From the IMG/VR virus record IMGVR_UViG_3300011113_000492, positions 59,082-123,081 of that record: a DNA stretch of 64,000 nt, one strand, 5' to 3'. Below, piece after piece: positions 49,519-64,000 of the stretch; positions within the stretch are counted from its first letter, which is position 1; each line of letters begins with the position of its first letter. The DNA is from a virus. Position numbers and translations under genes: made by a program. The notes below the pieces were generated by a model. It was not told where the DNA came from. It ran no database searches and was given only the letters and a program-made list of their open reading frames with translations.

Positions 49519-51813
49519 ATGTTACAACCAAATCCTGAAATTGATGTTATTATCCAATCAGCAACTAATACAGCAGCACAAAAAAATCACGAGTACGTGA
49601 CTTTAGAACATTTGCTGTTTGCCATGGTAACACACGAACCATTTGCTAATATTATTGGCAATTTTGGTTGTGATGTTGACAATATGTCTAAAGAAATCGA
49701 ACAATATTTAGATAAGCAAACATATCTTGTTAACAAAGGATATGACATAGTTCCCAAGAAAACACACAGCCTAGAACGTGTTTTTAATCGTGCATTTACG
49801 CAGGTGTTGTTTAGTGGTCGACAACATTTACAAGTAATCGATTTATTCTTGAGTATTAACACTGAAGAAAAAAGTCATGCACGATACTTTATGATTAAAT
49901 TCGGCCTGGACCGAAGTCGTGTTGTGGACTACTGGAATAAAAATTATGTAGATCCTAAAGGTAAAAAGAAAGTAAGGAATGCTGTTGACAACATCCTTGA
50001 AGAATACTGCGATAATCTAAACGAATTGGCAGAAGCAGGAAAGATTGACCCAGTTATCGGCAGGGAAGCAGAGATTGATGAAATATCACATGTGCTGGCT
50101 AAAAGAAATAAAAGTAATGTGTTAATGGTGGGAGATCCTGGCGTTGGTAAAACTGCTATTGCTGAAGGTCTTGCACTTAACATTGTCACCGGAGACGTTC
50201 CAAAATACCTAGCAGATTATACAGTATATAATTTAGATATTGGTAGCTTGTTGGCTGGTAGTAAGTATCGTGGAGAATTTGAAGAGAAACTCAAAGACGT
50301 TATTAAAGCCTTAAATGCTAAAGGTAAATGTATTCTGTTTATCGATGAAGCTCATCAAATGCGAGGCGCAGGTGGCGGATCGCAGAGTAGCGTAGATTTT
50401 GCCAACATGATTAAACCTGCACTGACTAGAGGTCGGATTAAAGTCATTGCTTCAACAACTTGGGAAGAATATACTCAAAGTTTTGAAAAAGATCGCGCAT
50501 TGATGCGCCGCTTTTATAGGCTTACTGTAGAAGAGCCCACCCCAGATGTTGCAAAACAAATTCTTCGAGGTCTTAAAGATCATTTTGAAGAATTTCATAA
50601 TGGCACTATCAGTGAAGAAGCCATTGATGCCGCAGTTGATTTGAGTGTACGATATCAAACAGACAAGAGACTGCCAGACAAGGCCATTGATTTAGTGGAC
50701 ACCGCGGCAGCTAAACTAAAAATTAGCACTCTTGATTTTGTGGTTCGCAAAAGTCACATCATCGATGCTATCAGCAAATTTACAAAAATTCCAGTTGAAC
50801 AATTAGACAACGAAACAGTTAAGAACTTAGAAAGTCTTGAAGATAATATCAGATCTAATTTGTACGGCCAAGATCAGGCTGTAATAGATGTACTAGATAA
50901 AATTTATGTGAGTAGGGCTGGACTTAAAGCCTTGAATAAACCAGTGGGATCTTTCTTATTTTTAGGTCCCACTGGTACAGGTAAAACAGAGTTAGCAAAG
51001 TTGCTGGCTGAAAATCTCGGGATGAAATTATTAAGATATGATATGAGTGAATACCAAGAGCGCCATTCAGTTGCGAAATTGATCGGCGCTCCTCCCGGGT
51101 ACATAGGCTATGACGACGGAAATCTTGGCGGCGGCCTTTTAATCAGTGACGTTGAAAAGAATCCAAACTGCATCATATTGTTTGATGAAATAGAAAAAGC
51201 TCATCCAGACGTCAGTAACCTTTTGCTCAGTCTCATGGATGAAGGGATGATTACTAGTAGTAATGGAAAAAAGGCAGATTGTCGCAATGCTGTGGTCATT
51301 CTGACCAGTAATTTGGGTGCAGCAGACAATGAACGAAACAACATTGGGTTTGGGCGTAGTTTAGAACGCACAGGTGAAGATGATAAAGCTGTAAAAGATT
51401 TCTTTAAACCTGAGTTTAGAAATAGATTAGACGCTATTATTAAGTTTAACAAACTAGAACAAATCAGTATTCGTAAAATTGTAGGTAAGTTTGTACAAGA
51501 AATGAATGACTTGCTCAGTGACAAACATATTAAAGTGATCCTGTCAGAAAAAACAACTGACTATATTATCAGTCAGGGATATGATAGCAAAATGGGAGCC
51601 AGACCATTGGCTCGAAAGATCAATGAATTAATTAAAGTACCTTTGAGTAAAAAAATTCTATTTGATAATATTAATAATTGCACAGTACACGTAGACTTCA
51701 ATGATAAAATTGAATTTGATATTAAAGAAAAACAATTTGTAGTTTATCCTACAAATAATGTAATTGACGAAAATGGCTATGTTATCTTGGACCAAATTAA
51801 ATCCAACTGTTAA
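49519..51813 (+). CDS. clpA: ClpA-family AAA+ ATPase
   Basis: Clp N-domain; GDPGVGKT and GPTGTGKT Walker A motifs; RYDMSEY, GAPPGY, FKPEFRNRLD, MGARP. Confidence 0.9.
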   Translation: MLQPNPEIDVIIQSATNTAAQKNHEYVTLEHLLFAMVTHEPFANIIGNFGCDVDNMSKEIEQYLDKQTYLVNKGYDIVPKKTHSLERVFNRAFTQVLFSGRQHLQVIDLFLSINTEEKSHARYFMIKFGLDRSRVVDYWNKNYVDPKGKKKVRNAVDNILEEYCDNLNELAEAGKIDPVIGREAEIDEISHVLAKRNKSNVLMVGDPGVGKTAIAEGLALNIVTGDVPKYLADYTVYNLDIGSLLAGSKYRGEFEEKLKDVIKALNAKGKCILFIDEAHQMRGAGGGSQSSVDFANMIKPALTRGRIKVIASTTWEEYTQSFEKDRALMRRFYRLTVEEPTPDVAKQILRGLKDHFEEFHNGTISEEAIDAAVDLSVRYQTDKRLPDKAIDLVDTAAAKLKISTLDFVVRKSHIIDAISKFTKIPVEQLDNETVKNLESLEDNIRSNLYGQDQAVIDVLDKIYVSRAGLKALNKPVGSFLFLGPTGTGKTELAKLLAENLGMKLLRYDMSEYQERHSVAKLIGAPPGYIGYDDGNLGGGLLISDVEKNPNCIILFDEIEKAHPDVSNLLLSLMDEGMITSSNGKKADCRNAVVILTSNLGAADNERNNIGFGRSLERTGEDDKAVKDFFKPEFRNRLDAIIKFNKLEQISIRKIVGKFVQEMNDLLSDKHIKVILSEKTTDYIISQGYDSKMGARPLARKINELIKVPLSKKILFDNINNCTVHVDFNDKIEFDIKEKQFVVYPTNNVIDENGYVILDQIKSNC

Positions 51814-52501
51814 GCAAATATCAACAAAGAAAAAATTCTTTGGAAAATATTTGTTTAAAGTTAATGTGTGGTGTCCTGCTGCAAGAATTATAGTAGATCA
51901 AAGCGGTAACAATGTAGACGAACTATTAGAGCAAAGAATAAATGCAATGGATTGGCGTTATCGAAATTATGGGGGTAGTTGGGATGCTGCAAGAAATGCT
52001 CAAATCAAGCAACATGCCGACGTTAAACAATTACAAAATTTTATAGATATTAAACATCAATTCAAAGATCAAATAAAAATTCGAGTCGAAGAACCTCATA
52101 TTTCTGTGTACAGCAACGACGAAGCGTTTCTTTATAGTTTAGTATCTAAGGTGTTGCCTGACAGAATACTAGAAGTTCATGCACCTTCTTCCAAAGCAGC
52201 AGAAGATGCCCTAAATGACGGCAACGTTATCACTAAACGAATTTCTGATTATAATTATAAGGTGGTGCTTAAAGAAAGAATGTTGGCTGATTCTTCATTG
52301 AAAGAAAACGTCAAAGATTATCTATATAATTTGAATGAAGAAGTAAAGATGACTAAATCGTTAACGAAAAATCTAAGCAGCAAATACAGTTATTTTTTAG
52401 GCGGATACTTTTATTGTAAAGATATTAACATTACCACTTTTTTAACGTTAATGTGCCCAGATTTAATTTCCGGAATTTTTAAACTCACTACAGTGGATTA
52501 A
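51773..52501 (+). CDS. Hypothetical protein with two similar halves
   Basis: Overlaps the clpA end; KYLFKV and YNYKV-initiated halves. Confidence 0.6.
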   Translation: MAMLSWTKLNPTVKQISTKKKFFGKYLFKVNVWCPAARIIVDQSGNNVDELLEQRINAMDWRYRNYGGSWDAARNAQIKQHADVKQLQNFIDIKHQFKDQIKIRVEEPHISVYSNDEAFLYSLVSKVLPDRILEVHAPSSKAAEDALNDGNVITKRISDYNYKVVLKERMLADSSLKENVKDYLYNLNEEVKMTKSLTKNLSSKYSYFLGGYFYCKDINITTFLTLMCPDLISGIFKLTTVD

Positions 52502-52531
52502 TAAATATTTGTGTATTTCAAGGAGCCATGC

Positions 52532-52699
52532 ATGGCCAAGATTATCGAAGATATTATTGTAATTAAATTTTCAAAAATTGTTCCAGAAAAGGAACAGGAT
52601 CCCACACCAGCAGTAACCAACGATCATGTTACTGCTTTAATACAAGTTGCACAAGAATTAGTCGGCGAAGGCGTGGTTGTCGAAGTCGAAAGAGCTTAA
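52532..52699 (+). CDS. Small late hypothetical protein
   Basis: ATAAATA and AAGGAG upstream. Confidence 0.65.
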   Translation: MAKIIEDIIVIKFSKIVPEKEQDPTPAVTNDHVTALIQVAQELVGEGVVVEVERA

Positions 52700-52722
52700 T
52701 CTAACCTAATAGAAAGAAATCA

Positions 52723-53652
52723 ATGAGCGATAGCAAAAAACCAATTGACGCAAAGTTAATTCAACCCAAATCAACATCTACTCCTGTTCCCAAATTAACA
52801 AAACCAATTATGCCTGTGCCCGGAGCACCACAGACCGCAGTGGCGGCACCACAAGGTCAACAATTTGATTTTACAAAAGTTCACGTGCATTTTGCTGTAC
52901 CCTGCTACGGTGGAATGGTCAGCGAACCCACTATGACCAGCTTCTTGCGATTTACCCTAATGGCTAGCAAAGTTGGTCTGAACTGGAGTTTAGACACCAT
53001 GGTTAACGAATCTTTGGTCACAAGGGCTCGTAACAATTTATGTGCTAAAATGATGACTAATGCCGCTGCAACTCATTTTATGTTCATTGATGCAGATATT
53101 CGTTTCGAACCCGAATCCATTTTTGGTATGATCGCTGCTGACAAAGATGTTATTGGAGGTCTGTATCCTAAGAAAAGTTTGCCCATTGACTATGTTATTA
53201 ATTTGAAGAACGGTGGACGTATCGAAGGACCGATCTTCCAAGTAGACACACAGGGTACAGGATTCTTGTTGTTTAAAAAACATGTATACGAAAAATTAAT
53301 TGTTGCTCATCCAGAGTGCAAATATGTGGACGATATCGGATTAGGCAAACAGTTTGAACCGTTCATGTACAGTATCTTTGATACAGTGATCGACGAACGA
53401 GGTCATTACCTCAGCGAAGACTGGACGTTCTGCCGTCGTTGGCAAGCAATGGGCGGAGATATTTGGGCCGATAGCCGAGTATTATTGAATCACATTGGAC
53501 ACTACGAATTCAAAGGAGATCTTGCAGCCTTGGAACGAAAAGGACTTAAGCGAGTAGATGTTAACAGCCCCGAAGGCAAAGCAGCAGTAGAAGCTCAGAT
53601 GAAAGCTGCACAAGAAGCTCAGGGAAAACAACATGAATCAAATCCAGCCTGA
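52723..53652 (+). CDS. GT-A-fold glycosyltransferase-like protein
   Basis: VPCYGG, ESLVTRARN, FIDADI, YLSEDWTFCRRW, HIG. Confidence 0.75.
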   Translation: MSDSKKPIDAKLIQPKSTSTPVPKLTKPIMPVPGAPQTAVAAPQGQQFDFTKVHVHFAVPCYGGMVSEPTMTSFLRFTLMASKVGLNWSLDTMVNESLVTRARNNLCAKMMTNAAATHFMFIDADIRFEPESIFGMIAADKDVIGGLYPKKSLPIDYVINLKNGGRIEGPIFQVDTQGTGFLLFKKHVYEKLIVAHPECKYVDDIGLGKQFEPFMYSIFDTVIDERGHYLSEDWTFCRRWQAMGGDIWADSRVLLNHIGHYEFKGDLAALERKGLKRVDVNSPEGKAAVEAQMKAAQEAQGKQHESNPA

Positions 53653-54127
53653 TTTAGAAAGTTTAAAATTTAAAATAGGCTTAAGCGGAACATACTGGGG
53701 GAAAAAGCCCCAGTATTCCGTTTTATTAAACAAAATTAAATTACATTCTAGTGAAATAACTGAACCCAGTGATCAAGTTTTCTACATAGAATTTCAGGCT
53801 GATTGCACTGAAAACTCTGATAATATCTTAGAAATCAGACTAGAAAATAAAGAAGATTCAGACACTGTCCAAAATTCAGAAAGAACTGAAATTCTTAAAG
53901 ACATGCTATTGAATATACATAGCATAGAAATAGACGAAATTAGTATGGATCAATTAATATGGTCAAAAAGTCAATTTTTGCCCGATGATTCTAGTAGACC
54001 TATCTTAGATAACTGTGTTAATTTAGGTTGGAATGGTGCTTATACATTTAAATTTACCAGCCCTTTTTATCTATGGTTATTAGAATCTGAATGGTGCCCT
54101 TTAGAAGGCACCATTGACGGTGTGTAA
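53633..54127 (+). CDS. Hypothetical protein
   Basis: Overlapping ORF; NLGWNG...SPFYLWLLE. Confidence 0.6.
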   Translation: MNQIQPDLESLKFKIGLSGTYWGKKPQYSVLLNKIKLHSSEITEPSDQVFYIEFQADCTENSDNILEIRLENKEDSDTVQNSERTEILKDMLLNIHSIEIDEISMDQLIWSKSQFLPDDSSRPILDNCVNLGWNGAYTFKFTSPFYLWLLESEWCPLEGTIDGV

Positions 54128-54187
54128 TTTCAAAAAACAATCAATACATCCAAATCAATAAATACTACATTAACTAATAATGTAAGT

Positions 54188-56851
54188 ATGTACGCTCACG
54201 AATTATACGAACAAAATAAACCCAGAGTTGTTGTAACATATCCTGGAAGATTTCAGCCTTTTCACCAAGGACACGCCGGTGTTTTTGCACAATTACAAAA
54301 GAAATTTGGAAGGGACAGTGTTTATATTCTAACTAGCAACGACACTAGTTCAGCAAAAAGTCCGTTTAATTTCTCAGACAAATATCAGCTAATGACCGCA
54401 GCTGGAGTGCCGGGAGATAAAATAATCGAAACTAATCAGATGTACAAGTTACCTGATTCCATTGATGCTGCTAACACTATATTCATAACTGCGGTGGGCG
54501 CACCAGATGCTGATAGATTAAATCCCGACACATATACTAAAAGAGATCAAAAAGACAAAGAAGGCAATATTACTAAGCCTGCAGGCAGTCCCAGTTACTA
54601 TAAAACTTGGGGAGGGGCCGAAACACCAGTGACCGCAGATCAGCACGGTTATGTTATTATTATTCCAGAAATACACAAAGAAGTAACTATTAAAGGTCAA
54701 AAATATGATGTAAGTCACGGTACAGAATGTCGTAACTTATGGAATTCTATTAGAAATGATGCTAAGGCTAGAACAGAGTTTCTGACTCAGATGTATGCTA
54801 GACCCAGTCAAGAACTAGCTGCTATCTTTGATAAGATACCTCAGACTACCTCAGAAGACGTCAGTGCTGACAATCAAACCAGTACCAGTCCTATTCATGG
54901 AGGACAAGTAACGCAAGGCGTGGCGGAAAGTGACCATCAATCTAGTTCTAAAACTGGCATTTATCAGACTGATGTTCTCGGAGCAAAAGCTTATCATAGT
55001 AAATGTTTAGAAAAAGGCTGCGACTGGGAATCTCGCAGATATGATCGTATCAAACAGGCACAAGACGCTGCTAAAAAACACGCTCAAACACACATCAAGT
55101 CAGGTGTGGCGGAAGGTGATCTACAAGAAATACAACGAACCAAAGGTGACAAAGAAGGACTAAGCACCAAAGGTCAGAACTGGGGCAAAGAAACTTTAGC
55201 AAAGATCAAGATGCTGCCAGGTAGTCAAAGGTTTGGTTATACTGCAAGTGATGCCGGACGTGCCGCCTCTTTCTTGACAGGTGCTGATACTATCATTGAA
55301 CTATTTGATGTAAAACATCCACAAGACGGTTTGAGAAAAGCAGGCTTTTTGTCATTGCGTTCAGCTCCGTGGTTCCCTATCAAAAACAGCTATCAAGTCG
55401 CCAACGTTGGATTAGACAGTGAATATCGCGGCACAGGCTTAGGACAAAGTCTCTACGGTATAGCAATGAAATTGTTGGGCATGACCATTGTGGCAGATGA
55501 TACACAAACCCCACAGGCTCGTAGTTCATGGCTTAGACTGTCACAGGTGCCAGGGGTAGCAATCAATGGCTACACATCTGTGTTTTCCGAAGACTGGGCA
55601 TTGAGAAACAATCGTAATGAAATCTATGACGACAGTGCCAAACGACTTATCAGTGCGCTATTGAAGGCAAGTGGACAAGAGATTGGCAAAAACTCAACAT
55701 TTGTATATGTAAGTTTCCCAGTGGGTGCCAACGCTGACCAAAATGAATTACAGGCTCTACAAAAAGGCATTACTATTTACAGTGCTCGACATCCCGAAGA
55801 TGGTGGTACTCAAAATGGGTTGTACGCTAGATGGAGTGGCCAAGTTAAGGAGCAAGGTCTGGCAGAAGATGCTGCCGGAGTTGGTGTTGTAGCTAAAAAC
55901 AAAAAGATGGCACGTGACCCAAGATACAGTATGAGTATTACTAAGGACGTAAAACCGTCGACTCCTAAAAATATGTTGCGAGCTTTTAGATTGTCTGAAG
56001 ATTCGGCAGTCAGTGAAGAGCAGATTATGAATATGGTAAAAAGTTTCTTACCATTGGCCATGAAAGAACTTAATCTAGAAAAGCTGCCAAAAATTGTTAT
56101 AAAGAAACATATCGAAACACACGATGGACAGGCTACCTTTGGCCGTTTTGTCAATGAAGAAGAAAAAATATATCTTGGCATTGCCGATAGGCACCCTGTG
56201 GATATACTGAGAACACTGGCGCACGAACTGGTACACTTCAAACAACACGAGCAAGGCAGAATGGAGCCTGACTCAGGCGACACTGGTAGCCCCATTGAAA
56301 ATGAAGCCAATGCTGTTGCTGGTGTGCTGATGCGGTATTTTAATAAAAAATATCCCAACGCAGTCAAGTCTTCAGCAGTATCCTTAGATGAAAGTCTTTT
56401 TGAGCGATATCAGCAGTTCAAAGAAAACGGCGATGAAGCAGACGAAATTAAAAAACAAAAAAATCTAATACCTTTTCCCAAAGGCACAGTCAAAGTAGAT
56501 GTCAGTGATGTCTACGATTGGTATAAAATAGGGCAGGAAATCAGCGACCTAGACGATGCTGATCCCGCAGACTTTGGCAAAGGTCCCCCACAAACAGTTA
56601 TGGCATTTGGCAGCGAACCCGAAGAACATCGATATCTAAAAGATCTAAAAAGATTGGGCTTAAAAACGCATGACATAGATGAAAACTTTGCTGATGGTCG
56701 CAATCCCCAGGACAAAGGCGACAGTAAAAGATACAATGTACCAACTAAAGGTAAAATATCTACTCTGAGAAAGATTGCTAAACAAGGCGGCCGTCGAGGA
56801 CAATTAGCCCATTGGATGGCCAATATGCGTAGTGGTAAAAACAAAAAATGA
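54188..56851 (+). CDS. Polyvalent/polyprotein: nucleotidyltransferase-like, C2H2-like, GNAT-like, HExxH metallopeptidase-like and small modules
   Basis: YPGRFQPFHQGH; C-x4-C...H-x3-H; EYRGTGLGQSLY; LAHELVH; modules separated by GVAE/GLAE/L-x-E linkers. Confidence 0.8.
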   Translation: MYAHELYEQNKPRVVVTYPGRFQPFHQGHAGVFAQLQKKFGRDSVYILTSNDTSSAKSPFNFSDKYQLMTAAGVPGDKIIETNQMYKLPDSIDAANTIFITAVGAPDADRLNPDTYTKRDQKDKEGNITKPAGSPSYYKTWGGAETPVTADQHGYVIIIPEIHKEVTIKGQKYDVSHGTECRNLWNSIRNDAKARTEFLTQMYARPSQELAAIFDKIPQTTSEDVSADNQTSTSPIHGGQVTQGVAESDHQSSSKTGIYQTDVLGAKAYHSKCLEKGCDWESRRYDRIKQAQDAAKKHAQTHIKSGVAEGDLQEIQRTKGDKEGLSTKGQNWGKETLAKIKMLPGSQRFGYTASDAGRAASFLTGADTIIELFDVKHPQDGLRKAGFLSLRSAPWFPIKNSYQVANVGLDSEYRGTGLGQSLYGIAMKLLGMTIVADDTQTPQARSSWLRLSQVPGVAINGYTSVFSEDWALRNNRNEIYDDSAKRLISALLKASGQEIGKNSTFVYVSFPVGANADQNELQALQKGITIYSARHPEDGGTQNGLYARWSGQVKEQGLAEDAAGVGVVAKNKKMARDPRYSMSITKDVKPSTPKNMLRAFRLSEDSAVSEEQIMNMVKSFLPLAMKELNLEKLPKIVIKKHIETHDGQATFGRFVNEEEKIYLGIADRHPVDILRTLAHELVHFKQHEQGRMEPDSGDTGSPIENEANAVAGVLMRYFNKKYPNAVKSSAVSLDESLFERYQQFKENGDEADEIKKQKNLIPFPKGTVKVDVSDVYDWYKIGQEISDLDDADPADFGKGPPQTVMAFGSEPEEHRYLKDLKRLGLKTHDIDENFADGRNPQDKGDSKRYNVPTKGKISTLRKIAKQGGRRGQLAHWMANMRSGKNKK

Positions 56852-57126
56852 GACAAATTGAACTGACCTGCGAAGTACGCTGCTTGGATGAAGCAGAAAA
56901 TCAATCATATCGACTATACATCGACGATAATTTAATAACCGAAAGAACGTGGATTTGGCCGTGGCATTTTCGTATAAAAGAACATGTATATCTAGATATA
57001 GAGCCCGGCGAACATACAATAAGAGTAGAACCAGTAGACAAAAAGTTTACTAAATTTTATGTAAATGCCCTGCATTTAGATGGTTACCCCACTGGCAAAG
57101 TCAGCGGAGTATTTAAAGCTATCTAA
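56848..57126 (+). CDS. Hypothetical beta-rich protein
   Basis: ATGA overlap. Confidence 0.6.
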   Translation: MRQIELTCEVRCLDEAENQSYRLYIDDNLITERTWIWPWHFRIKEHVYLDIEPGEHTIRVEPVDKKFTKFYVNALHLDGYPTGKVSGVFKAI

Positions 57127-57155
57127 TAAATATAGTAATATTACGGATTAAAACT

Positions 57156-58007
57156 ATGAAAAGTGAACATTTTTTAAAAGAAGGCTTTGTGGAAGACGCA
57201 TCAGAGGTACATGCTGATCACGAAGTACAAATGGCTAGGTCAGATTTATTTCATGCTGCGGAAGATGCGCTGGTATTACATAAATTATTAAGAAATATCA
57301 GTGAACAGCAGGGACTAGAAGGGTGGGTAGCTGCTAAGATTACCCTAGCCAGTGACTATTTAAAAACTGTTCGTGAATACATAGAGTATGAATTAATGAC
57401 TGCGGCCAGCGAACAACCCATGCTGCCAATAGCAGAAGATCGGCAAGGTGTGGCGGAAGGCTCGGATGAAAAACAATCATTTAAAGTATCTTACCATAAT
57501 CCTAAAACAAGACAAGACAAAGTAGTAACAATTAAAGCCCCTAATAAAGACGAAGTATTGGATTATTGTGCCAATAAAGGTTATAAAAATGTACACGTTG
57601 AGCAGGGTGTCTCAGAAGATGATTCAGCGGTACAATCGTTTTTAAGTAAAGGCGGAAAGATTCAACAACTGCCATATAAAAAGCCTCGCAAAGCAGATAA
57701 AACCGATTACGGCAGTAAACACATTGGCGGTAGCGGTGATAAGATGAAAGCCAGTCGTACAGGTACTGCTGCTAAAACACAGGGTAACAAGGTAGCAGGA
57801 ATGTCAGAAGGGTCGGCCTGTAACCACACCATGGAAGGTAAAAGTTGTCCAATGCATGGATTAAAGGAATGCCCTGGTTATAAATCTAGTATAGAAGAAA
57901 CCACCGCTGGTAGTGTTGCTGGTGTAGTCAACCCCACACCAAAAAACAAAGCCAAAGTTGGTACATTGTTTGGTGGAACATACAAGCAGAAAAAAACAAA
58001 GGCATAA
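57156..58007 (+). CDS. Modular (GVAE-linked) late protein
   Basis: AATAAATA upstream; modules bounded by GVAEG, GVSED and GMSEG; Cys/His cluster CNH...CPMHG...C. Confidence 0.75.
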   Translation: MKSEHFLKEGFVEDASEVHADHEVQMARSDLFHAAEDALVLHKLLRNISEQQGLEGWVAAKITLASDYLKTVREYIEYELMTAASEQPMLPIAEDRQGVAEGSDEKQSFKVSYHNPKTRQDKVVTIKAPNKDEVLDYCANKGYKNVHVEQGVSEDDSAVQSFLSKGGKIQQLPYKKPRKADKTDYGSKHIGGSGDKMKASRTGTAAKTQGNKVAGMSEGSACNHTMEGKSCPMHGLKECPGYKSSIEETTAGSVAGVVNPTPKNKAKVGTLFGGTYKQKKTKA

Positions 58008-58008
58008 T

Positions 58009-59397
58009 ATGTCAGACATGCGCCGCCTAATAGAAACTGTTGATTCTGGTACTGCTAAAACAAAAGTCGACGAAGCTTTACCATTGATAGGTGCAGGCAT
58101 TGCAGCAGGTGCAAGATTAGCTGCACCTTATGTGGCAAGAGCAGGTAGTGCTATAATGAAAGGTCTAAGAGGAACTCCAAAGCCCCCAACTACGCCTCCA
58201 ACAGTTACCCCCTCTGGAGTAACTCCAACTATTCCTACTAATGTAAATGTTCCGGCTGTAGTAAGAAATAGGCCTGGACAGCCTGTACCGGGATCTACTC
58301 CCCCTGCAAGTACTCCTGCACCCACAACAACTACCCCACCCGCGGCACAATCCACAGTGGCTAAACCAAGAATAGAAAGACGTCCTGGCGAATCTGTAGA
58401 GGATGCTATCAAAAGAGCGCAAGGTGAAAAATCAGCTCCTACAGCAAGACCAGCCGAACCTGCACCTGCTACTACATCTGCACCCACACCCGCGTCACAA
58501 ACAGGACAAGGCCCAGCAGTATGGCGTGATCCCAGAACTGGTGAAGTTAGCAGTACACCCCCCGGAGGCGGGAGTCCGCCAACTGTCAGGGATCCTTTTG
58601 CAAATCCAACATTTCCTTTTAGAGATACGACGAGAGCTGAAAGAGCTGCCGTGGGCAGGGCTCGAAGTCAAGAAAGACAAGCAGGGGAAATAATTCCAAA
58701 GCCAATTGGAGGGAAACCAGGCGATGTTCTTAAACAAAGAAGAAAATTAATATCTCCTGTGGCACTTGATACACAAACTCAACCTATTAGGGGAGGTGGT
58801 GGCGGAGGAGGTGGTGGCAGCGATCAATCTGGTGACGATGCAAGCCCTTCGGCTCCTAGTCCACAAACTAACACTGATACATCTCAGGCTATAGATTGGG
58901 ATAAAGTGGTATGGGTCGATCAATCAGCAGCCCAATCAGTATCACCAACGATTAGCAACGTGGCGCCCCAATCATCGGCACCAATTAGAACAGAACCACC
59001 AGCCCAATCAGCACCAGCCAGAGAACCAGCCAAAGTAGAACCAGCCAGAGAACCAGCCAGAGAACCAGCCAGAGAACCAGCCAGAGAACCAGCCAAAGTA
59101 GAACCAACTAAAGTAGAACCAGTCAAAACACCGTCTGTCGGTACAGGTGGTGGTCAAGGATCAGGCAGCGGAACTGGAACAGGAAGCGGACAAGGATCAG
59201 GCAGTGGTTCTGGATCGGGCACTGGATCAGGCTCTGGCAGTGGTTCAGGATCAGGCTCTGGCAGTGGTGCGGGAGAAGGACCTATAGATAGATATCAATG
59301 GCTTAAACAACAAGGAGTGACCGGGGTGCGAGAATATCGCAGTACAAAAAAATTAATGCGAGAATTTAGCAGACATTTAAACAGGATCCAACGATGA
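58009..59397 (+). CDS. P/A/T/G-rich low-complexity protein, probable internal virion protein
   Basis: Starts MSDMRRLIE; EPAR repeats and a (GS)n tract. Confidence 0.7.
   Translation: MSDMRRLIETVDSGTAKTKVDEALPLIGAGIAAGARLAAPYVARAGSAIMKGLRGTPKPPTTPPTVTPSGVTPTIPTNVNVPAVVRNRPGQPVPGSTPPASTPAPTTTTPPAAQSTVAKPRIERRPGESVEDAIKRAQGEKSAPTARPAEPAPATTSAPTPASQTGQGPAVWRDPRTGEVSSTPPGGGSPPTVRDPFANPTFPFRDTTRAERAAVGRARSQERQAGEIIPKPIGGKPGDVLKQRRKLISPVALDTQTQPIRGGGGGGGGGSDQSGDDASPSAPSPQTNTDTSQAIDWDKVVWVDQSAAQSVSPTISNVAPQSSAPIRTEPPAQSAPAREPAKVEPAREPAREPAREPAREPAKVEPTKVEPVKTPSVGTGGGQGSGSGTGTGSGQGSGSGSGSGTGSGSGSGSGSGSGSGAGEGPIDRYQWLKQQGVTGVREYRSTKKLMREFSRHLNRIQR
59014..59118 (+). repeat. Tandem 12/15-bp repeats CCAGCCAGAGAA / CCAGCCAAAGTAGAA (PARE/PAKVE)
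   Basis: Four perfect 12-mers at 59041-59088 plus flanking variants. Confidence 0.9.
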
Positions 59398-62288
59398 GCG
59401 ACATTAAAAAGTTATTAGAAACCATGGATCGCATGTCTGCAGCGGAACGTAAACCCGCAGGTCCAAAGTTTCCTGGTTATTGGAAAGGCACAGATCCTGC
59501 CAGCAAAGCCAAAGATAAAATGGTGGGCGGTGCAGAAGAAAGTATTATAAAAGATCTTCATAGTACTGCCAAAGAACGAGTCACTGAGTGGCAACTTCAA
59601 GAAAAATATGCAAGGTTCAAAGAACAAGACAGCAAAGCATACACAGGCATAGATCCAATTGTTCGACAAAGAATGGGCATGCCACCAGCTACAGCAGATG
59701 AAATTCAATCTTATTTTAACAAAAATCCACCAGCAATAAAAGCAGGGGATGGGTATCTTCATAGTAATACTGCTGTAAGTCTTGATCCGAAAAAAGATTT
59801 TGGACCCGATGCCGTTAGGTCTGGCGGACAAATGGATGTAATAAGTGCGGCAGCAGGTGCGGCAAAAAAAGCAGCAGGAATAAATGAACCTTCCGTGAAT
59901 GTAACTGACCGTCCAGTACAACCAGTTTCATCACAAGCTCAGCCACCTGCGTCAGCAGTGGCACCAGCAGCTAGACCTCAGCCACCTGTGTCAGCATCAT
60001 CTGCAACTTCCAGTTCCAATAATTCAACCACTGACAATTTCGTTAAACCCCCACCGGGGTTAATTTTGACCCCTGAACCTAATAAAAATAATGGAGCATC
60101 TGCAACTTCATCAGGACCCAATACTCAGGGGCAAGGAATGTTGAGTGGTGGTGGTAGCGCAACTTGGGCAACTAGTCCGTTAAATCCTGCCAATCGTCGA
60201 GATAGTTCATCGGCACCAGCAGTGGCGCCGTTTGGATCTGGCCCCCCTGACACTAGATTATTAATAAATCCACCTCAAGGAAATGCAGCATTAAATCCTG
60301 CCAAAAACACAGATAGTGCAACTAACATCCCTGGTGGTCAATCAGCTGGCGGGCCTGGAGTAGTACCTCCAGCCGCAAGACCCTCGTCAACAGCCACTCC
60401 TTATCGAGGCAATCAAGGCGCAAGAGAAATTCAAGCAGTAAATCCATCTATTAAAGATGTAAATAAAATTCAAGCAGGACAACGATTAAAATTGCCCGAC
60501 AGCGACAAAGATTATGTTGTACAAAAAGGCGACACTTTAGATAAAATTGGAAAAATGTATCGCAGTGGGGAAATAGGCGGGCGAGTAGTGGGAGGAGAAG
60601 GTCCAACATCATCCTCAGATTCCAGACCTCAACCTGCTGCTCCTGCTGCCGCAGCTCAACCTGCTGCTCCTGCGGCTAGACCTCAACCTGCTGCATCGGG
60701 GCCACAACCTGCTGCTCCTACAGCCAGACCAGCACCTGCTGCATCGGGGCCACAACCTGCTGCTCCTGCGGCTGCGACTCAACCCAATGCTGGAACATCG
60801 CAGACAAATTTAACTCATCCACCGGGCACTCAAGTCCAATTAAAAATCCATAATGTAAAAGATCGAGGCAAATTAGTAAATGGTGGAAAACCAATGGATA
60901 TAACTGTAATGAAAGGCGCCGACGGTAAATGGTATAATCCAAAAGGTCAACCAGTTACTTTTAATAAACCAAGCGACTTAGACCATCTAGAACGAATGCC
61001 AGCACTACAACTTCCGCGAATAACATACGATAATCCAAGGCCCCCCGGTGTGCCTGCAGGTTCAATGTCTACGCCAAATTTTTTAAAAGCTCCATTGGGC
61101 AGTTTCCAAAATTACAGAAAAGGCAGTGACGGCGAATGGTACAGAGAAGATGGTACTAGGGTAGACAGATTAGACCTGATACAGAATTTAGAAAAAAATG
61201 CAAAGACTCCGCAAGCTCCATCAGCCAGACCACAACCTGCTGCCCCAAGAGAGCCTGCTGGTCAAACCAGTAAAGTTCCTGAGGCATCTAAATCTTCCGA
61301 CGCAATGGCATCTTATGCTGCAAGGGGAGGTAGAGTTTATGCAGCAGACTTTAACAATCCCAGTGGCTTAGGCTGGGACGGTAAAGGAAAATACACTAGT
61401 TATAAGACTCCCGAGGAAGGAGTTAATGCTACCAAAGATTTAGTTGCACGATACTTAACCGATCAAACTCCATATATTAAAGGTTCTCCTACTCCGGATC
61501 AAGTGGTCAGTACATGGGTGTCGGGGGGTAAAACACCGGCTGACAAAATTCAAGGTGGAAGATATCTTCAATCAGTTAAAGATGAGCTGGCCGCGGCTGG
61601 TGTTAAATTAGATGCCAAGGGAAGAATACCTTATTCACAGGCCGCAAGAGATGCTATTACACGAGCCATTGTTCGTCACGAGACTGCCCCTAAGCATATG
61701 GAAAAATTTGCACCTTTTCTAACTGCGCCAAAAGATGCAAAAGGGTCGATTGAAGAATCGAACAAAGAAGATGAAAAAATTGCAGGACGATACGATCCCG
61801 ACGACTTTGACCTTATGGTTAAACGTTTAGGTCAACGAGCTCGAGAACAAGATCGTAAGCACGGGCCTGTTGATATTGCCGCATTAGCAAAAAGATTACG
61901 TGAATTAGAAAAAAGACATCAAACTAATGAAGTAGAAGATCCTGCGGTGAACATGCAAGATCCCGATGTACAACAGACTAGTCAAACCAGTCCGCAACAA
62001 GATCCTGCGGCTGTTAGACAGCAACAATTAGATCAAACAGTGGACATGGCCACTGCCAAAGGCACTATGACTGGTTTAAAAAATGTACTAGGACCCAAAG
62101 TAGACACAAACGCATTGGCCAGTGCTGTTACAAAAATCAGTGACGGTAAACCTTTATCTGGCCCTGAGTCGATGTCAATGAGTGCTCTTACACCTTTGAT
62201 AAGTAAAGCAGCAGAGACTCCACAAACTGCAATGGCATTAAAAACAGCATTAAGTAATGCTGGTATGTTAGCCAAGCAAGGAAAATAA
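59394..62288 (+). CDS. Large low-complexity virion protein with permuted LysM and a putative lysozyme-like domain
   Basis: Starts MSDIKKLLE; QPAAP repeats; NPSIKDVNKIQAGQRLKL then YVVQKGDTLDKI; NNPSGL...YKTPEEGVNA...AIVRHE. Confidence 0.7.
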   Translation: MSDIKKLLETMDRMSAAERKPAGPKFPGYWKGTDPASKAKDKMVGGAEESIIKDLHSTAKERVTEWQLQEKYARFKEQDSKAYTGIDPIVRQRMGMPPATADEIQSYFNKNPPAIKAGDGYLHSNTAVSLDPKKDFGPDAVRSGGQMDVISAAAGAAKKAAGINEPSVNVTDRPVQPVSSQAQPPASAVAPAARPQPPVSASSATSSSNNSTTDNFVKPPPGLILTPEPNKNNGASATSSGPNTQGQGMLSGGGSATWATSPLNPANRRDSSSAPAVAPFGSGPPDTRLLINPPQGNAALNPAKNTDSATNIPGGQSAGGPGVVPPAARPSSTATPYRGNQGAREIQAVNPSIKDVNKIQAGQRLKLPDSDKDYVVQKGDTLDKIGKMYRSGEIGGRVVGGEGPTSSSDSRPQPAAPAAAAQPAAPAARPQPAASGPQPAAPTARPAPAASGPQPAAPAAATQPNAGTSQTNLTHPPGTQVQLKIHNVKDRGKLVNGGKPMDITVMKGADGKWYNPKGQPVTFNKPSDLDHLERMPALQLPRITYDNPRPPGVPAGSMSTPNFLKAPLGSFQNYRKGSDGEWYREDGTRVDRLDLIQNLEKNAKTPQAPSARPQPAAPREPAGQTSKVPEASKSSDAMASYAARGGRVYAADFNNPSGLGWDGKGKYTSYKTPEEGVNATKDLVARYLTDQTPYIKGSPTPDQVVSTWVSGGKTPADKIQGGRYLQSVKDELAAAGVKLDAKGRIPYSQAARDAITRAIVRHETAPKHMEKFAPFLTAPKDAKGSIEESNKEDEKIAGRYDPDDFDLMVKRLGQRAREQDRKHGPVDIAALAKRLRELEKRHQTNEVEDPAVNMQDPDVQQTSQTSPQQDPAAVRQQQLDQTVDMATAKGTMTGLKNVLGPKVDTNALASAVTKISDGKPLSGPESMSMSALTPLISKAAETPQTAMALKTALSNAGMLAKQGK

Positions 62289-62289
62289 T

Positions 62290-64000
62290 ATGAATTTGTT
62301 TGATATATTTGAATCCGGCGATCAAGAATTAGATGAAAATTTGCGTAAATGGTTCAAAGACAAATGGGTGAGATTCGGACCGGATGGCGAGATTCGAGGT
62401 GACTGTGCCAGAGGTGATGACAGCGAAGGCAAGCCAAAGTGCTTACCACAAAGTAAAGCACATGCGTTAGGCAAAAAAGGTCGTGCTAGTGCTGCTGCTC
62501 GTAAACGTAGAGAAGATCCCGATCCAGAACGCAGAGGTCCTGCTAAGAATGTTGCTACTAAGAAAAAGAGTAATGAAGGTGTGGCGGAAGGCTCCGGGGG
62601 GCAAAAGTTTATTGTTACCTATAACAATAGCCTATCGAATGATTCGTATACTGTTATGGTGTCAGCTGATGACGAATATGATGCTAAAGACAAAGTTAGT
62701 CATGCACTAGGCATGGGTGACAGAATTACTGATGTCAAATCTGCTCGTGGCACTGAGCCCACAGACCGTGAATATAAAGTGTTTGTTGATCCCAGAACTA
62801 GTCAAAAAAGATCAGGTATCTATGACAGGCAACAAGGGTTGGCGGAGGATGAATTAGACGAAGCATGTTGGAAAGGTTATCATAAGGAAGGTATGAAAAC
62901 CATGTTTGGCAAACGTTATCCAAACTGTGTTAAAAATACAAATGAAGAACAAACAGTAAAAGAAGACACTAACATACCTTTTAATACTTGTCCTGGTTGT
63001 GGTGGTGATATAGTACACGAATCAGAACTACAAGAAAAACAAGATGCTTGTTATCACAAAGTAAAAAGTCGTTACAAAGTTTGGCCCAGTGCATATGCTA
63101 GCGGTGCATTAGTTCAGTGCCGTAAAAAAGGTGCTAGTAACTGGGGTAATAAATCCGAAGGTGTGGCGGAAGGTTCCGATATCCCTCAATGGAGAGTTGA
63201 GCAGTCAGATGCTACTGGTCGTTATTATGTAGTGAGTGGTTATAGTGACAAATCTCGCAAAGTATGGAAAAGTAAACTAGGTGCTATAGACTTTGTGAAA
63301 AAAGCAGACGCGGAAGCAAAGGCACAAGAATTAAATCAAGGTGTGGCGGAAGGCAAAATCAAACTAAGCACAGACCCTAACTGGTACGGAGCCGAAGTAG
63401 GTAATTATAAATCTAACAGTCCTGTCGTCAACATTCCAGCAAATCAATTAGTAGGATTCGAACCTGATGACAAAATGAATCAACCTGCTAGTAAAGCCAA
63501 TGTTGAAAAGATTGTTGTCGGCCTAAAACAAGGTGCTAAACTTCCTCCTTTGCTGGTTCGCAAATACAAAAACGGATATCAAGTATTAGATGGGCACCAT
63601 AGATTTTGGGCATACAAATTATTAGGAGTCAAATCAATACCAGCACAGGTTGTTCCTGATAGTGATATTGAAGAAAAAGGTCAGCAAGGTGTGGCGGAGG
63701 CAGAGTTAGACGAAGCATGTTGGAAAGGTTACCACAAAGAAGGTATGAAAACTATGTTTGGTAAAAAATATCCAAACTGTGTAAAGAATACTAACGAAGA
63801 ACAAGAACAACATAGCGAAAAATGTCCACATTGCGGCGGCGAAATGGTTAGTGAAGAACTAATGAATGAAAAGAAAGATGCTTGCTACTATAAAGTAAAG
63901 AGTCGTTATAAAGTATGGCCTAGTGCTTATGCAAGTGGTGCATTAGTTCAATGTCGTAAGAAGGGTGCTAGTAACTGGGGTACCAAGAGTGAAGGTGTGG
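62290..64000 (+). CDS. Modular GVAE-linked polyprotein with ParB-like domain and internal duplication; 3'-truncated (absent from ORF track)
   Basis: ATG 62290 (MNLFDIFE), open to the window end; LRKWFKDKWV, ACWKGY..PNCV x2, VWPSAYASG x2, PPLLVR...VLDGHHR. Confidence 0.85.
   Translation, partial: MNLFDIFESGDQELDENLRKWFKDKWVRFGPDGEIRGDCARGDDSEGKPKCLPQSKAHALGKKGRASAAARKRREDPDPERRGPAKNVATKKKSNEGVAEGSGGQKFIVTYNNSLSNDSYTVMVSADDEYDAKDKVSHALGMGDRITDVKSARGTEPTDREYKVFVDPRTSQKRSGIYDRQQGLAEDELDEACWKGYHKEGMKTMFGKRYPNCVKNTNEEQTVKEDTNIPFNTCPGCGGDIVHESELQEKQDACYHKVKSRYKVWPSAYASGALVQCRKKGASNWGNKSEGVAEGSDIPQWRVEQSDATGRYYVVSGYSDKSRKVWKSKLGAIDFVKKADAEAKAQELNQGVAEGKIKLSTDPNWYGAEVGNYKSNSPVVNIPANQLVGFEPDDKMNQPASKANVEKIVVGLKQGAKLPPLLVRKYKNGYQVLDGHHRFWAYKLLGVKSIPAQVVPDSDIEEKGQQGVAEAELDEACWKGYHKEGMKTMFGKKYPNCVKNTNEEQEQHSEKCPHCGGEMVSEELMNEKKDACYYKVKSRYKVWPSAYASGALVQCRKKGASNWGTKSEGV

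Follow-up and report, generated by a model that had tools for sequence, protein, structure and literature searches.

What keeps a short protein linker identical as DNA, silent positions included, at the borders of otherwise unrelated modules? The question is raised by a 64-kb window (the whole 64,000-nt stretch analysed here) of a 123-kb contig from an uncultured giant T4-type phage, in which six residues, Q-G-V-A-E-G, join small unrelated protein modules and are encoded by DNA kept letter for letter. The 11-mer GGTGTGGCGGA occurs in six exact copies (55103, 57447, 62578, 63160, 63340 and 63688), all on the plus strand, all in Gly-Val-Ala-Glu phase and confined to three late-type genes (54188-56851, 57156-58007 and 62290-end); five copies extend to the 14-mer GGTGTGGCGGAAGG, the copy at 63688 reading ...GAGGC instead. 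We verified in the sequence each of these copies and extensions, the near-copies at 54917 and 62836 and the copy cut off at 63994 that the initial annotation had listed, and the ORF placement of every copy bore out its claim of a single codon phase in three genes. The 11-mer was absent from all 100 dinucleotide shuffles of the sequence, and the remaining 59 kb of the contig held no further copies, so that a contig-wide count by strand and frame, set against codon usage, places the motif on the plus strand, in frame and in these genes only. DNA flanking the linkers was unrelated from site to site in the window. The genes, linkers and promoter-like boxes lie as follows.

54157..54164, plus strand, late-promoter-like box (T4 type) AATAAATA, about 30 nt upstream of gene A; pattern match only
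54188..56851, plus strand, putative polyprotein gene A (P0001, 887 aa), N-terminus MYAHELYE; orthologue L207:6001-8604
54917..54928, plus strand, linker variant GVAE-S, GGCGTGGCGGAA, one mismatch
55103..55116, plus strand, canonical linker S-GVAE-G, GGTGTGGCGGAAGG
55856..55867, plus strand, degenerate linker Q-GLAE-D, GGTCTGGCAGAA; downstream limit of the stretch that the G004 orthologue has replaced
57125..57132, plus strand, late-promoter-like box AATAAATA upstream of gene B; pattern match
57156..58007, plus strand, putative polyprotein gene B (P0002, 283 aa), one module with a weak SutA-RBD-like match
57447..57460, plus strand, canonical linker Q-GVAE-G, exact motif
57606..57617, plus strand, degenerate linker Q-GVSE-D, GGTGTCTCAGAA
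57798..57809, plus strand, degenerate linker A-GMSE-G, seen in the sequence
58009..59397, plus strand, P/T/S/G-rich low-complexity protein (P0004 from its ATG), N-terminus MSDMRRLIE↓T, a CTS-like leader; syntenic homologue in L207
59394..62288, plus strand, P/A/S-rich 964-aa protein (P0005) with a LysM match, N-terminus MSDIKKLLE↓T
62290..63999, plus strand, putative polyprotein gene C (P0003, at least 570 aa, truncated where the contig ends), N-terminus MNLFDIFE
62578..62591, plus strand, canonical linker E-GVAE-G; a 1.3-kb match (89% identity) with L172, L181 and L068 stops here
62836..62847, plus strand, degenerate linker Q-GLAE-D, near-copy, GGGTTGGCGGAG
63160..63173, plus strand, canonical linker E-GVAE-G, exact motif
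63340..63353, plus strand, canonical linker Q-GVAE-G, upstream edge of the ParB cassette
63688..63699, plus strand, linker Q-GVAE-A, GGTGTGGCGGAG, downstream edge of the ParB cassette
63994..64000, plus strand, first letters of one more linker, GGTGTGG, truncated by the contig end

The three linker-bearing genes probably encode late-expressed, head-packaged polyproteins of the 'polyvalent protein' class, in which small effector-type modules, most of them unrelated, are strung together. Gene A runs from a cytidylyltransferase-like head, where a CTP_transf_like match was confirmed, through a C2H2-like module, a module of about 250 aa with an RGxGxG motif and a HExxH zincin-like region (weak matches to Peptidase_M78 and Tox-MPTase3, under Pfam cut-offs) to a tail, and an orthologue carries a deaminase-like insert. 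Gene C consists of a head, an 86-aa module, a Cys-rich module, a 56-aa module, a ParB_N module and a second Cys-rich module. Unrelated conflict-type domains thus share a polypeptide, as in polyvalent proteins (ParB_N and CTP_transf_like; the zincin weakly). Among the domain labels first given to these modules, ParB stands (ParB_N, E = 1.4e-6, passing its cut-off), C2H2 matches in the window proteins are weak and under Pfam cut-offs, and the 'GNAT-like' module, labelled solely by its RGxGxG-type motif, returned nothing in Pfam and PDB sequence searches. P0004 is likely a co-packaged head or ejection protein.

Several features point to processing in the prohead. T4-family proteases cut after Glu (PMC5694885), and T4 internal proteins use a capsid-targeting sequence (PMC3012670). 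Each of the five genes in the block opens with a brief leader whose last residues are [LI]-x-E (MYAHELYE, MKSEHFLKE, MNLFDIFE, MSDMRRLIE and MSDIKKLLE), a resemblance in hydrophobic-x-Glu pattern only, as the leaders are not homologous to T4 MKTYQEFIAE. Peptidase_S77 (gp21-type) and Gp23 were found in all five near-complete linker-bearing relatives, including the syntenic G004, and the contig that holds the window, 35% complete, showed neither gp21 nor gp23. The major capsid protein of G002 contains ...LLAE↓SSAG, two ORFs of relatives end exactly at ...GVAE-stop, and in a cyanophage the module homologue S-SCSM1_29 carries a virion-protein annotation. The late-promoter-like AATAAATA boxes ahead of genes A and B agree with this. 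Because V-A-E↓G fits gp21 processing, as do the [LI]-x-E leaders at the N-termini, we infer cleavage at the linkers.

Cleavage would constrain the peptide, and the constraint that we observed reaches silent positions. Two of the linker's codons are rare, GCG making up 6.6% of Ala codons and GTG 21% of Val codons, and contig codon usage (GGT 0.335, GTG 0.21, GCG 0.066, GAA 0.84) predicts the canonical spelling at only about 0.005 per GVA site. Across 82 related IMG/VR loci, chosen by domain peptides without use of the linker, the exact 12-mer GGTGTGGCGGAA stood at 69 of 117 GVAE sites versus about 0.6 expected from codon usage, and the Ala codon in GVAE was GCG in 82% of cases versus 7.9% in the background. 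At orthologous junctions the linker codons were 89% identical and flanking four-fold codons 30% identical, indicating that the nucleotides themselves are constrained. The fixed string reaches past GVAE, silent positions included, to NAG-CAA upstream and GGC downstream, giving an adaptor consensus [K/Q/E]-[Q/E/K]-G-V-A-E-[G/A/E/D] spelled NAG-CAA-GGT-GTG-GCG-GAA-GGC. Losses of the Val and Ala wobble bases tend to go together (odds ratio 6, P = 0.0016), which is the behaviour predicted for a string that acts as a unit. One canonical spelling dominates every lineage, and lineage-specific drift was not seen; the one-step non-synonymous variants GMAE and GLAE retain GCG. The duplicated Cys-rich module differs at 32 synonymous and 20 non-synonymous positions over 104 codons with an identical 3' linker, close to the 25 of 75 synonymous differences counted earlier. 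The freezing of GGT-GTG-GCG against an AT-ending codon habit, which the initial annotation had singled out, therefore exceeds both codon usage and recent duplication, and linker codons do not vary freely among orthologues.

The motif is also restricted in where it occurs. Among 152 matches to the 14-mer in IMG/VR loci, 137 lay within an open frame and 116 were preceded by Q, E or K, and the five near-complete relatives carried two to six copies each, mostly clustered within 10 kb, with one or two copies away from the cluster in three of them. Because the motif is confined to these genes and in frame, it is not a Chi-like or genome-wide element, and the alternative raised earlier, that it is equally common out of frame or between genes, went against the counts. 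We found no cultured phage carrying the motif and no paper on the linker. Cassettes bounded by a linker at both ends had a median length of 83 aa and fell into 362 clusters, mostly singletons.

Homology between relatives frequently ends at the linkers. Protein matches between phages stopped there in 61% of cases, compared with 15% at random positions. Homologues ended at 143 of 187 linkers; at the DNA level, 11.6% of match ends (at least 85% identity) fell within 10 nt of the motif versus 0.45%, an enrichment of about 26-fold. In the window, the homology to L172, L181 and L068 stops exactly at the 62578 linker, and orthologues in G004 retain head and tail domains with the middle modules swapped, as in gene B, whose head (aa 1-85) and C-terminal tail are kept. 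Gain, loss and replacement breakpoints of relatives thus coincide with the motif, statistically and in explicit cases, and cassette order is not fixed. This much supports the original suggestion of a recombination or insertion site; a dedicated integron-like system gained no support, as the motif is unlike a palindromic attC and neither a recombinase nor a homing endonuclease turned up in the window or in 96 non-redundant neighbouring ORFs of relatives. Profile matches to the window ORFs gave no recombinase family, in agreement with the first reading of this DNA.

The linker is not the only place at which modules part. Between 65 and 85% of homology breakpoints were not at a GVAE site, sites with one to four mismatches to the canonical DNA were breakpoints as often as exact sites, many module breakpoints lay at degenerate [VLIM]-x-E sites, and cyanophage homologues, none of which carries GVAEG, also shuffle the Cys-rich modules. 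Exact DNA is therefore not required for shuffling, and linker breakpoints could reflect selection for domain-boundary junctions rather than cross-overs within the string. A string of 14-21 nt is, moreover, short for T4-type homologous recombination, and selection for 'exchangeability' is second-order and, as a rule, weak.

The best explanation, which we hold with moderate confidence, is a dual-use joint that combines a protease site with microhomology for in-frame module exchange, a reading backed by six exact in-frame copies where none is expected by chance. As protein, V-A-E↓G would be a T4-type prohead-protease (gp21) site at which modules are cut apart in the prohead, one N-terminal capsid-targeting-like leader having loaded the whole string of modules. 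As DNA, the identical 14-21-nt string would offer microhomology at every module boundary, at which the general recombination machinery of the phage could remove, copy, add or swap entire modules without loss of frame, both inside one genome and among relatives infecting the same cell. Breakpoints do fall at the linker, and crossing-over would take place inside the string. Silent positions would then be held by selection on the nucleotide string itself, most likely because only the common spelling stays compatible with a shared cassette pool; mutated linkers would still serve as protease sites, leave the exchange and decay.

Could the peptide suffice? If the linker were only a protease site or spacer, its DNA identity would be passive descent and breakpoints would gather there by tolerance of domain boundaries, the DNA having no mechanistic role. 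The independence of breakpoint frequency from DNA exactness, the swapped segments delimited by degenerate junctions, the linker-free cyanophage shuffling and the GCG kept by GMAE and GLAE, as expected of descent, all suit this account, which we nevertheless consider unlikely: linker codons stay 89% identical where flanking silent sites are saturated, the spelling is the same in every lineage without drift, and silent conservation takes in two codons before GVAE and one after.

A similarly low probability attaches to the opposite view, in which the string of about 20 nt is a nucleic-acid element that starts recombination, either by folding as a G-quadruplex or because a nuclease or recombinase encoded elsewhere in these genomes recognises its sequence. 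Such an element would account for the strong nucleotide constraint, the universal canonical form and the enrichment of DNA breakpoints. GG-TGT-GG-C-GG-AA-GG contains GG four times, as expected of a two-tetrad G-quadruplex; only 32 of 512 synonymous spellings keep these runs, for which the rare wobble bases of GTG and GCG are exactly those required, and G4-aware folding predicts a weak quadruplex (-2.7 kcal/mol). Against this, a two-tetrad quadruplex is marginally stable, 42% of linkers lack Gly at +1 and hence the fourth GG run yet have GTG and GCG at 73%, positions unneeded by the fold (GGT, GGC, NAG-CAA) are conserved too, and recombinase, HNH and GIY-YIG genes were absent from the window and the 96 neighbouring ORFs. 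It is equally doubtful that an active site drives in-frame capture, excision and exchange as a true intragenic 'integron', diversifying injected effectors whose cassettes would stay protease-releasable.

Less probable still is another cutter, or none: the HExxH zincin-like domain of gene A might cut, for example, before Val, or the linker might be an uncleaved flexible spacer of a large virion protein. The weak Peptidase_M78 and Tox-MPTase3 matches, together with the autoprocessing by MPTase domains proposed for polyvalent proteins and the unprocessed packaging of phage N4 vRNAP (both from PMC5512222), lend this some plausibility, but genes B and C have no zincin-like domain, gene A's own matches to zincins fall short of Pfam cut-offs, the final residue of the motif is Glu, as in T4-family protease substrates, and two ORFs end at GVAE-stop. 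A translation signal, in which a rare-codon or Shine-Dalgarno-like ribosome pause aids co-translational folding, would fit the domain-boundary position and the two rare codons but is very improbable, as Gly and Glu use their commonest codons and so form no rare-codon cluster, predicted anti-SD pairing ranks 334th of 512 synonymous spellings (-7.2 kcal/mol versus a median of -8.0 and -12.2 for a true SD), the string has no Rfam match and a pause needs no exact 20-nt string.

If the linker is such a dual-use joint, giant T4-type phages would possess a standard plug-in format for head-packaged effectors, in which a single leader would load modules, a single protease site release them and a single DNA adaptor carry them between genes and phages with the frame intact, explaining quick renewal of anti-host or anti-defence cargo. 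It would also supply a simple rule for metagenomes, whereby segments between linkers are read as small cargo modules, potentially hundreds (219 doubly bounded cassettes were gained here), and a clear natural case of a sequence constrained as protein and DNA alike.

Known systems share parts of this arrangement. Integron attC/IntI arrays likewise consist of exchangeable units bounded by a recognisable site, an analogy only: we found no IntI tyrosine recombinase in the scanned window ORFs or the 96 neighbour ORFs of relatives, GGTGTGGCGGAAGG contains no internal inverted repeat such as the hairpin-forming imperfect palindrome of attC, its flanks are unrelated between sites, and promoter-driven separate ORFs are also absent. 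PeSL cassettes of T4-type phages (Arbiol et al. 2010, PMC2839356; PMC4122927) are closer in that short conserved repeats flank variable units and recombination shuffles modules, also yielding mini-circles; however, PeSLs are intergenic promoter-terminator elements (a sigma-70 promoter and a terminator stem-loop) flanking whole genes, whereas the GVAEG string lies inside ORFs, is translated and shuffles gene parts in frame. In T-even tail-fibre gp38, exchanges fall within or near glycine-rich motifs (Tetart et al. 1996, 1998, as cited in PMC3157838), short conserved coding motifs between hypervariable segments; those motifs are the structural core of one family in fixed order, whereas the GVAEG linker is common to unrelated genes, stands between whole independent domains, keeps its silent sites constant and is a probable cleavage site. 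Polyvalent proteins (Iyer et al. 2017, PMC5512222) resemble our genes in joining 2-15 unrelated effector domains, ParB-like and zincin (MPTase) among them, in late or virion contexts with extensive mosaicism; the cleavage passages of that paper, in whose text the word 'linker' is absent, name no shared junction peptide or DNA-level motif and ascribe processing to the proteins' own MPTase domain, whereas here a prohead protease is the predicted cutter. The T4 internal proteins IPI-III and Alt (PMC3012670, PMC5694885), which combine a capsid-targeting sequence with gp21 processing, have in common with the present system short leaders ending in hydrophobic-x-E, a predicted cut after Glu and diverse small cargo that is probably anti-host, and relatives of the window phage carry T4-type head genes. 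The T4 proteins are separate genes with their own leaders and degenerate sites (L/I-x-E) not conserved as DNA, whereas here many modules follow one leader, and the standard internal site between them is fixed as DNA.

The exact 11-mer GGTGTGGCGGA occurs at positions 55103, 57447, 62578, 63160, 63340 and 63688 of the window, on the + strand throughout, and is absent from every shuffled version of the window. This bears out the six exact copies on one strand, at the same positions, that the initial annotation had described, and its near-copies and end-cut copy are also real: 54917 encodes GVAES, 62836 encodes GLAED (as does 55856), and 63994 is a copy cut off at the contig end. The linker these sites encode, Gly-Val-Ala-Glu(-Gly) (GVAE/GVAEG), lies between the modules of three polyprotein genes, which form a block with two further proteins:

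54188-56851, gene A: a cytidylyltransferase-like head, a small C2H2-like module, a 250-aa module and a HExxH zincin-like region
57156-58007, gene B: small modules, one of them a weak match to SutA-RBD
58009-62288, between genes B and C: two long P/A/S/T/G-rich proteins, one of which matches LysM
62290-end, gene C: a ParB_N module flanked by two linkers, and two Cys-rich modules

All five proteins carry a short N-terminal leader ending in [LI]-x-E, and genes A and B each have a AATAAATA box ~30 nt upstream. The 338-kb relative contig G004 keeps the order of the window: DnaJ, a ClpB-like gene, three small ORFs, A, a small ORF, B, two low-complexity proteins and C. A double AAA+ ATPase of ClpB/ClpA type (764 aa; window 49519-54127 and L207:528-5964, the G004 locus) lies shortly before the polyprotein block at a syntenic position in both, with DnaJ ahead of it in G004. 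The P/A/S/T/G-rich pair, also syntenic in G004, has a higher G+C content (0.46-0.48) and near-identical leaders (MSDMRRLIE and MSDIKKLLE); these are possibly head-internal or ejection proteins. In the gene B protein (P0002), residues 156-214 (window 57621-57797) match the SutA RNAP-binding domain weakly (E 2e-4, below the cut-off), and in two related loci, L171 and L113, this module again comes after a linker, within different polyprotein backbones; judged by this match, it is a possible injected RNA-polymerase binder. AlphaFold2 modelled the gene C protein (P0003) poorly from a mosaic alignment (mean pLDDT 53.6), and the placement of four of its five linkers in low-confidence stretches carries little weight.

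The source contig spans 123,081 bp (IMG/VR; CheckV completeness 35%), of which the window is the final 64 kb; the remaining 59 kb contain no copy of GGTGTGGCGGA. Counted by strand across this contig, as the initial annotation had advised, copies are confined to the polyprotein genes and to the + strand, and six-frame translation places seven GVAE peptides in coding frames of the three ORFs and one elsewhere. A Chi-like or other genome-wide DNA signal is thereby ruled out, as it is by five near-complete relatives (335-525 kb), which hold just 2-6 copies each, mostly clustered inside 10 kb. The DNA on either side of the linkers shows no relatedness from site to site. Given the codon usage of the contig (GGT 0.335, GTG 0.21, GCG 0.066, GAA 0.84), the spelling GGT-GTG-GCG is expected at ~0.5% of GVA sites and was observed at 6 of 7. 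Searching Rfam with the linker gave no match, and a tRNA search of the window found none.

Beyond this contig, the exact 14-mer recurs in at least 120 IMG/VR stretches. Among the matches listed, 137 of the 152 with enough flank sit, in the GVAEG phase, within a frame that runs without a stop for 20 codons or more to either side, the residue before the linker is Q, E or K in 116 of 152, and 28 of 114 loci have between two and four copies. For an unbiased sample, we fetched 82 loci by querying with domain peptides from genes C and A instead of the linker. These contain 117 distinct GVAE sites, without exception on the coding strand, and the exact 12-mer GGTGTGGCGGAA is present at 69 of them (~0.6 expected); the Ala codon is GCG in 82%, against a background of 7.9%. 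Constancy reaches further: two codons ahead of GVAE the third base is G (AAG, CAG or GAG), the next codon is CAA, and the following Gly is encoded by GGC instead of the usual GGT. The fixed string exceeds the length that the peptide requires. Tandem linkers with nothing between them also occur (GVAE-GVAEN and GMAEQ-GVAED; L157:6094-6120 and L130:181-210) and could mark vacant cassette slots or places where a module was lost. Among cultured phages, those closest in their capsid protein (Vibrio 2.275.O, PA5oct, Phosso and Turkey5) have no linker copy, a blastn search of 50,697 phage records with the string returned two chance matches only, megablast with the region gave no match, and we found no deposited phage carrying the motif.

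To separate DNA-level constraint from recency, we took junctions at which two loci are homologous on both sides and compared the four-fold codons wherever the residue is the same. In near-saturated flanks, 56 of 187 codons were identical (30%), against 66 of 74 linker Gly, Val and Ala codons (89%), so the claim that the linker's silent positions are frozen holds. Within the ParB cassette, silent sites vary freely (typical modal codon share ~0.4-0.7); the Ala codon of its flanking linkers is GCG in 17 of 18. Most variants change GTG to GTA or GCG to GCA, and these changes co-occur (odds ratio 6, p = 0.0016). Linkers of the same contig share variants no more than those of different contigs (identical pairs 0.369, versus 0.38 after permutation; p = 0.61). 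Given this lack of within-contig sharing, the ParB alignment and the disparity in codon identity, the lineages share one maintained canonical string, which is neither a relic of recent copying nor the outcome of genome-specific homogenization.

Another, less likely account of the frozen spelling is a G-quadruplex: the two rare frozen wobble bases coincide exactly with those giving four GG runs (GG-TGT-GG-C-GG-AA-GG), where they create runs 2 and 3, and just 32 of 512 spellings keep all four. The first seven bases also equal the central GGTGTGG of the thrombin-binding aptamer. However, the fourth run is missing from 42% of linkers, which nonetheless have GTG and GCG at 73%, and positions of no relevance to a quadruplex are fixed as well. 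A Shine-Dalgarno-like pause is unlikely, with the anti-SD pairing of the canonical spelling ranking 334th of 512. Genome-specific concerted evolution finds no support in the permutation result. Recent duplication is excluded by the unrelated flanks and by the two Cys-rich paralogous modules (104 codons), which, as the initial annotation had noted, diverged silently beside a constant linker (32 synonymous and 20 non-synonymous differences; identical 3′ linkers). The linker is no rare-codon pause, because only Ala uses its rarest codon.

The linkers coincide with module breakpoints, as had been proposed. Protein matches nearing a linker end within 8 residues of it in 61% of cases, versus 15% at random internal positions, and at least one homologue terminates at 143 of 187 informative linkers. 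For DNA matches (≥85% identity, ≥150 bp), 11.6% of the internal ends are no more than 10 nt from the motif, versus 0.45%. The window aligns with three related loci (L172, L181 and L068) for 1.3 kb with 89% identity as far as the 62578 linker, after which similarity ceases, and homology of the ParB module begins and stops at linkers, with both neighbours differing in nearly every locus. In the G004 orthologue of gene A (L207:6001-8604), the head and zincin parts are kept, an unrelated 100-aa segment replaces two window modules, and a 170-aa deaminase-like insert absent from the window gene stands at an E|D junction (...RLSE|D, ...FRLAE|D); this insert has a cytidine-deaminase-type motif, HAE...PCxxC. 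Gene B there keeps its head and tail and has exchanged its middle modules. Cutting 194 non-redundant polyproteins at linkers yielded 219 doubly bounded modules (median 83 aa), and module clustering gave 362 clusters, 297 of them singletons. Homology ends lie away from any GVAE site in 65-85% of cases, and exact and mutated linkers served as breakpoints at frequencies that did not differ. In cultured cyanomyoviruses, the same Cys-rich modules are arranged in different orders and with no GVAEG (L209:5134-7308, L210:5368-6921, L218:2449-4563 and L219:2812-4347). Their mosaic gene follows the small terminase gene in three of four phages; in S-SCSM1 and S-SCSM2R it also lies upstream of the large terminase gene, and in S-PRM1 its neighbours are all hypothetical.

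Peptidase_S77 and Gp23 are encoded in all five near-complete relatives, and the relative G002 has a head module in T4 gene order and a capsid protein reading ...KQLLAE|SSAG where T4 gp23 is trimmed. The head proteases of T4, phiKZ and SPN3US cut after Glu (PMC5694885), and T4 internal proteins are loaded via a capsid-targeting sequence (PMC3012670). The V-A-E|G linkers and N-terminal leaders match T4-type head-protease processing, and we predict cleavage at these sites. Two ORFs in relatives end exactly at Q-GVAE-stop (L149:6841 and L055:2903), as if the natural C-terminus equalled the predicted product, consistent with a protease site. S-SCSM1_29, a cyanophage protein with shared modules, carries a virion-protein annotation.

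Searches for a recombinase or homing endonuclease close to the locus found none, either in the window or among neighbouring ORFs in relatives, in keeping with the initial annotation's failure to see a recombinase. The commonest neighbours of the polyprotein loci (L127-L208) are ferritin-like genes (11 of 96 non-redundant ORFs). Of the overall reading first advanced, the frozen DNA and its coincidence with breakpoints stand; dedicated integron-like machinery is unsupported, the array differing from an integron in lacking both a recombinase and attC structure. We favour, with moderate confidence, a dual-use adaptor, at once a protease site and a DNA microhomology for in-frame module exchange. 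Our literature search found no phage paper with 'GVAEG' and nothing similar on polyproteins together with a prohead protease. Among the closest known things are polyvalent proteins (PMC5512222, which does not use the word 'linker' or describe a common junction motif), T4 internal proteins with their capsid-targeting sequence and gp21 processing, exchanges that take place at conserved motifs within the gp38 and gp37 adhesins (PMC3157838), and PeSL-mediated shuffling (PMC2839356).
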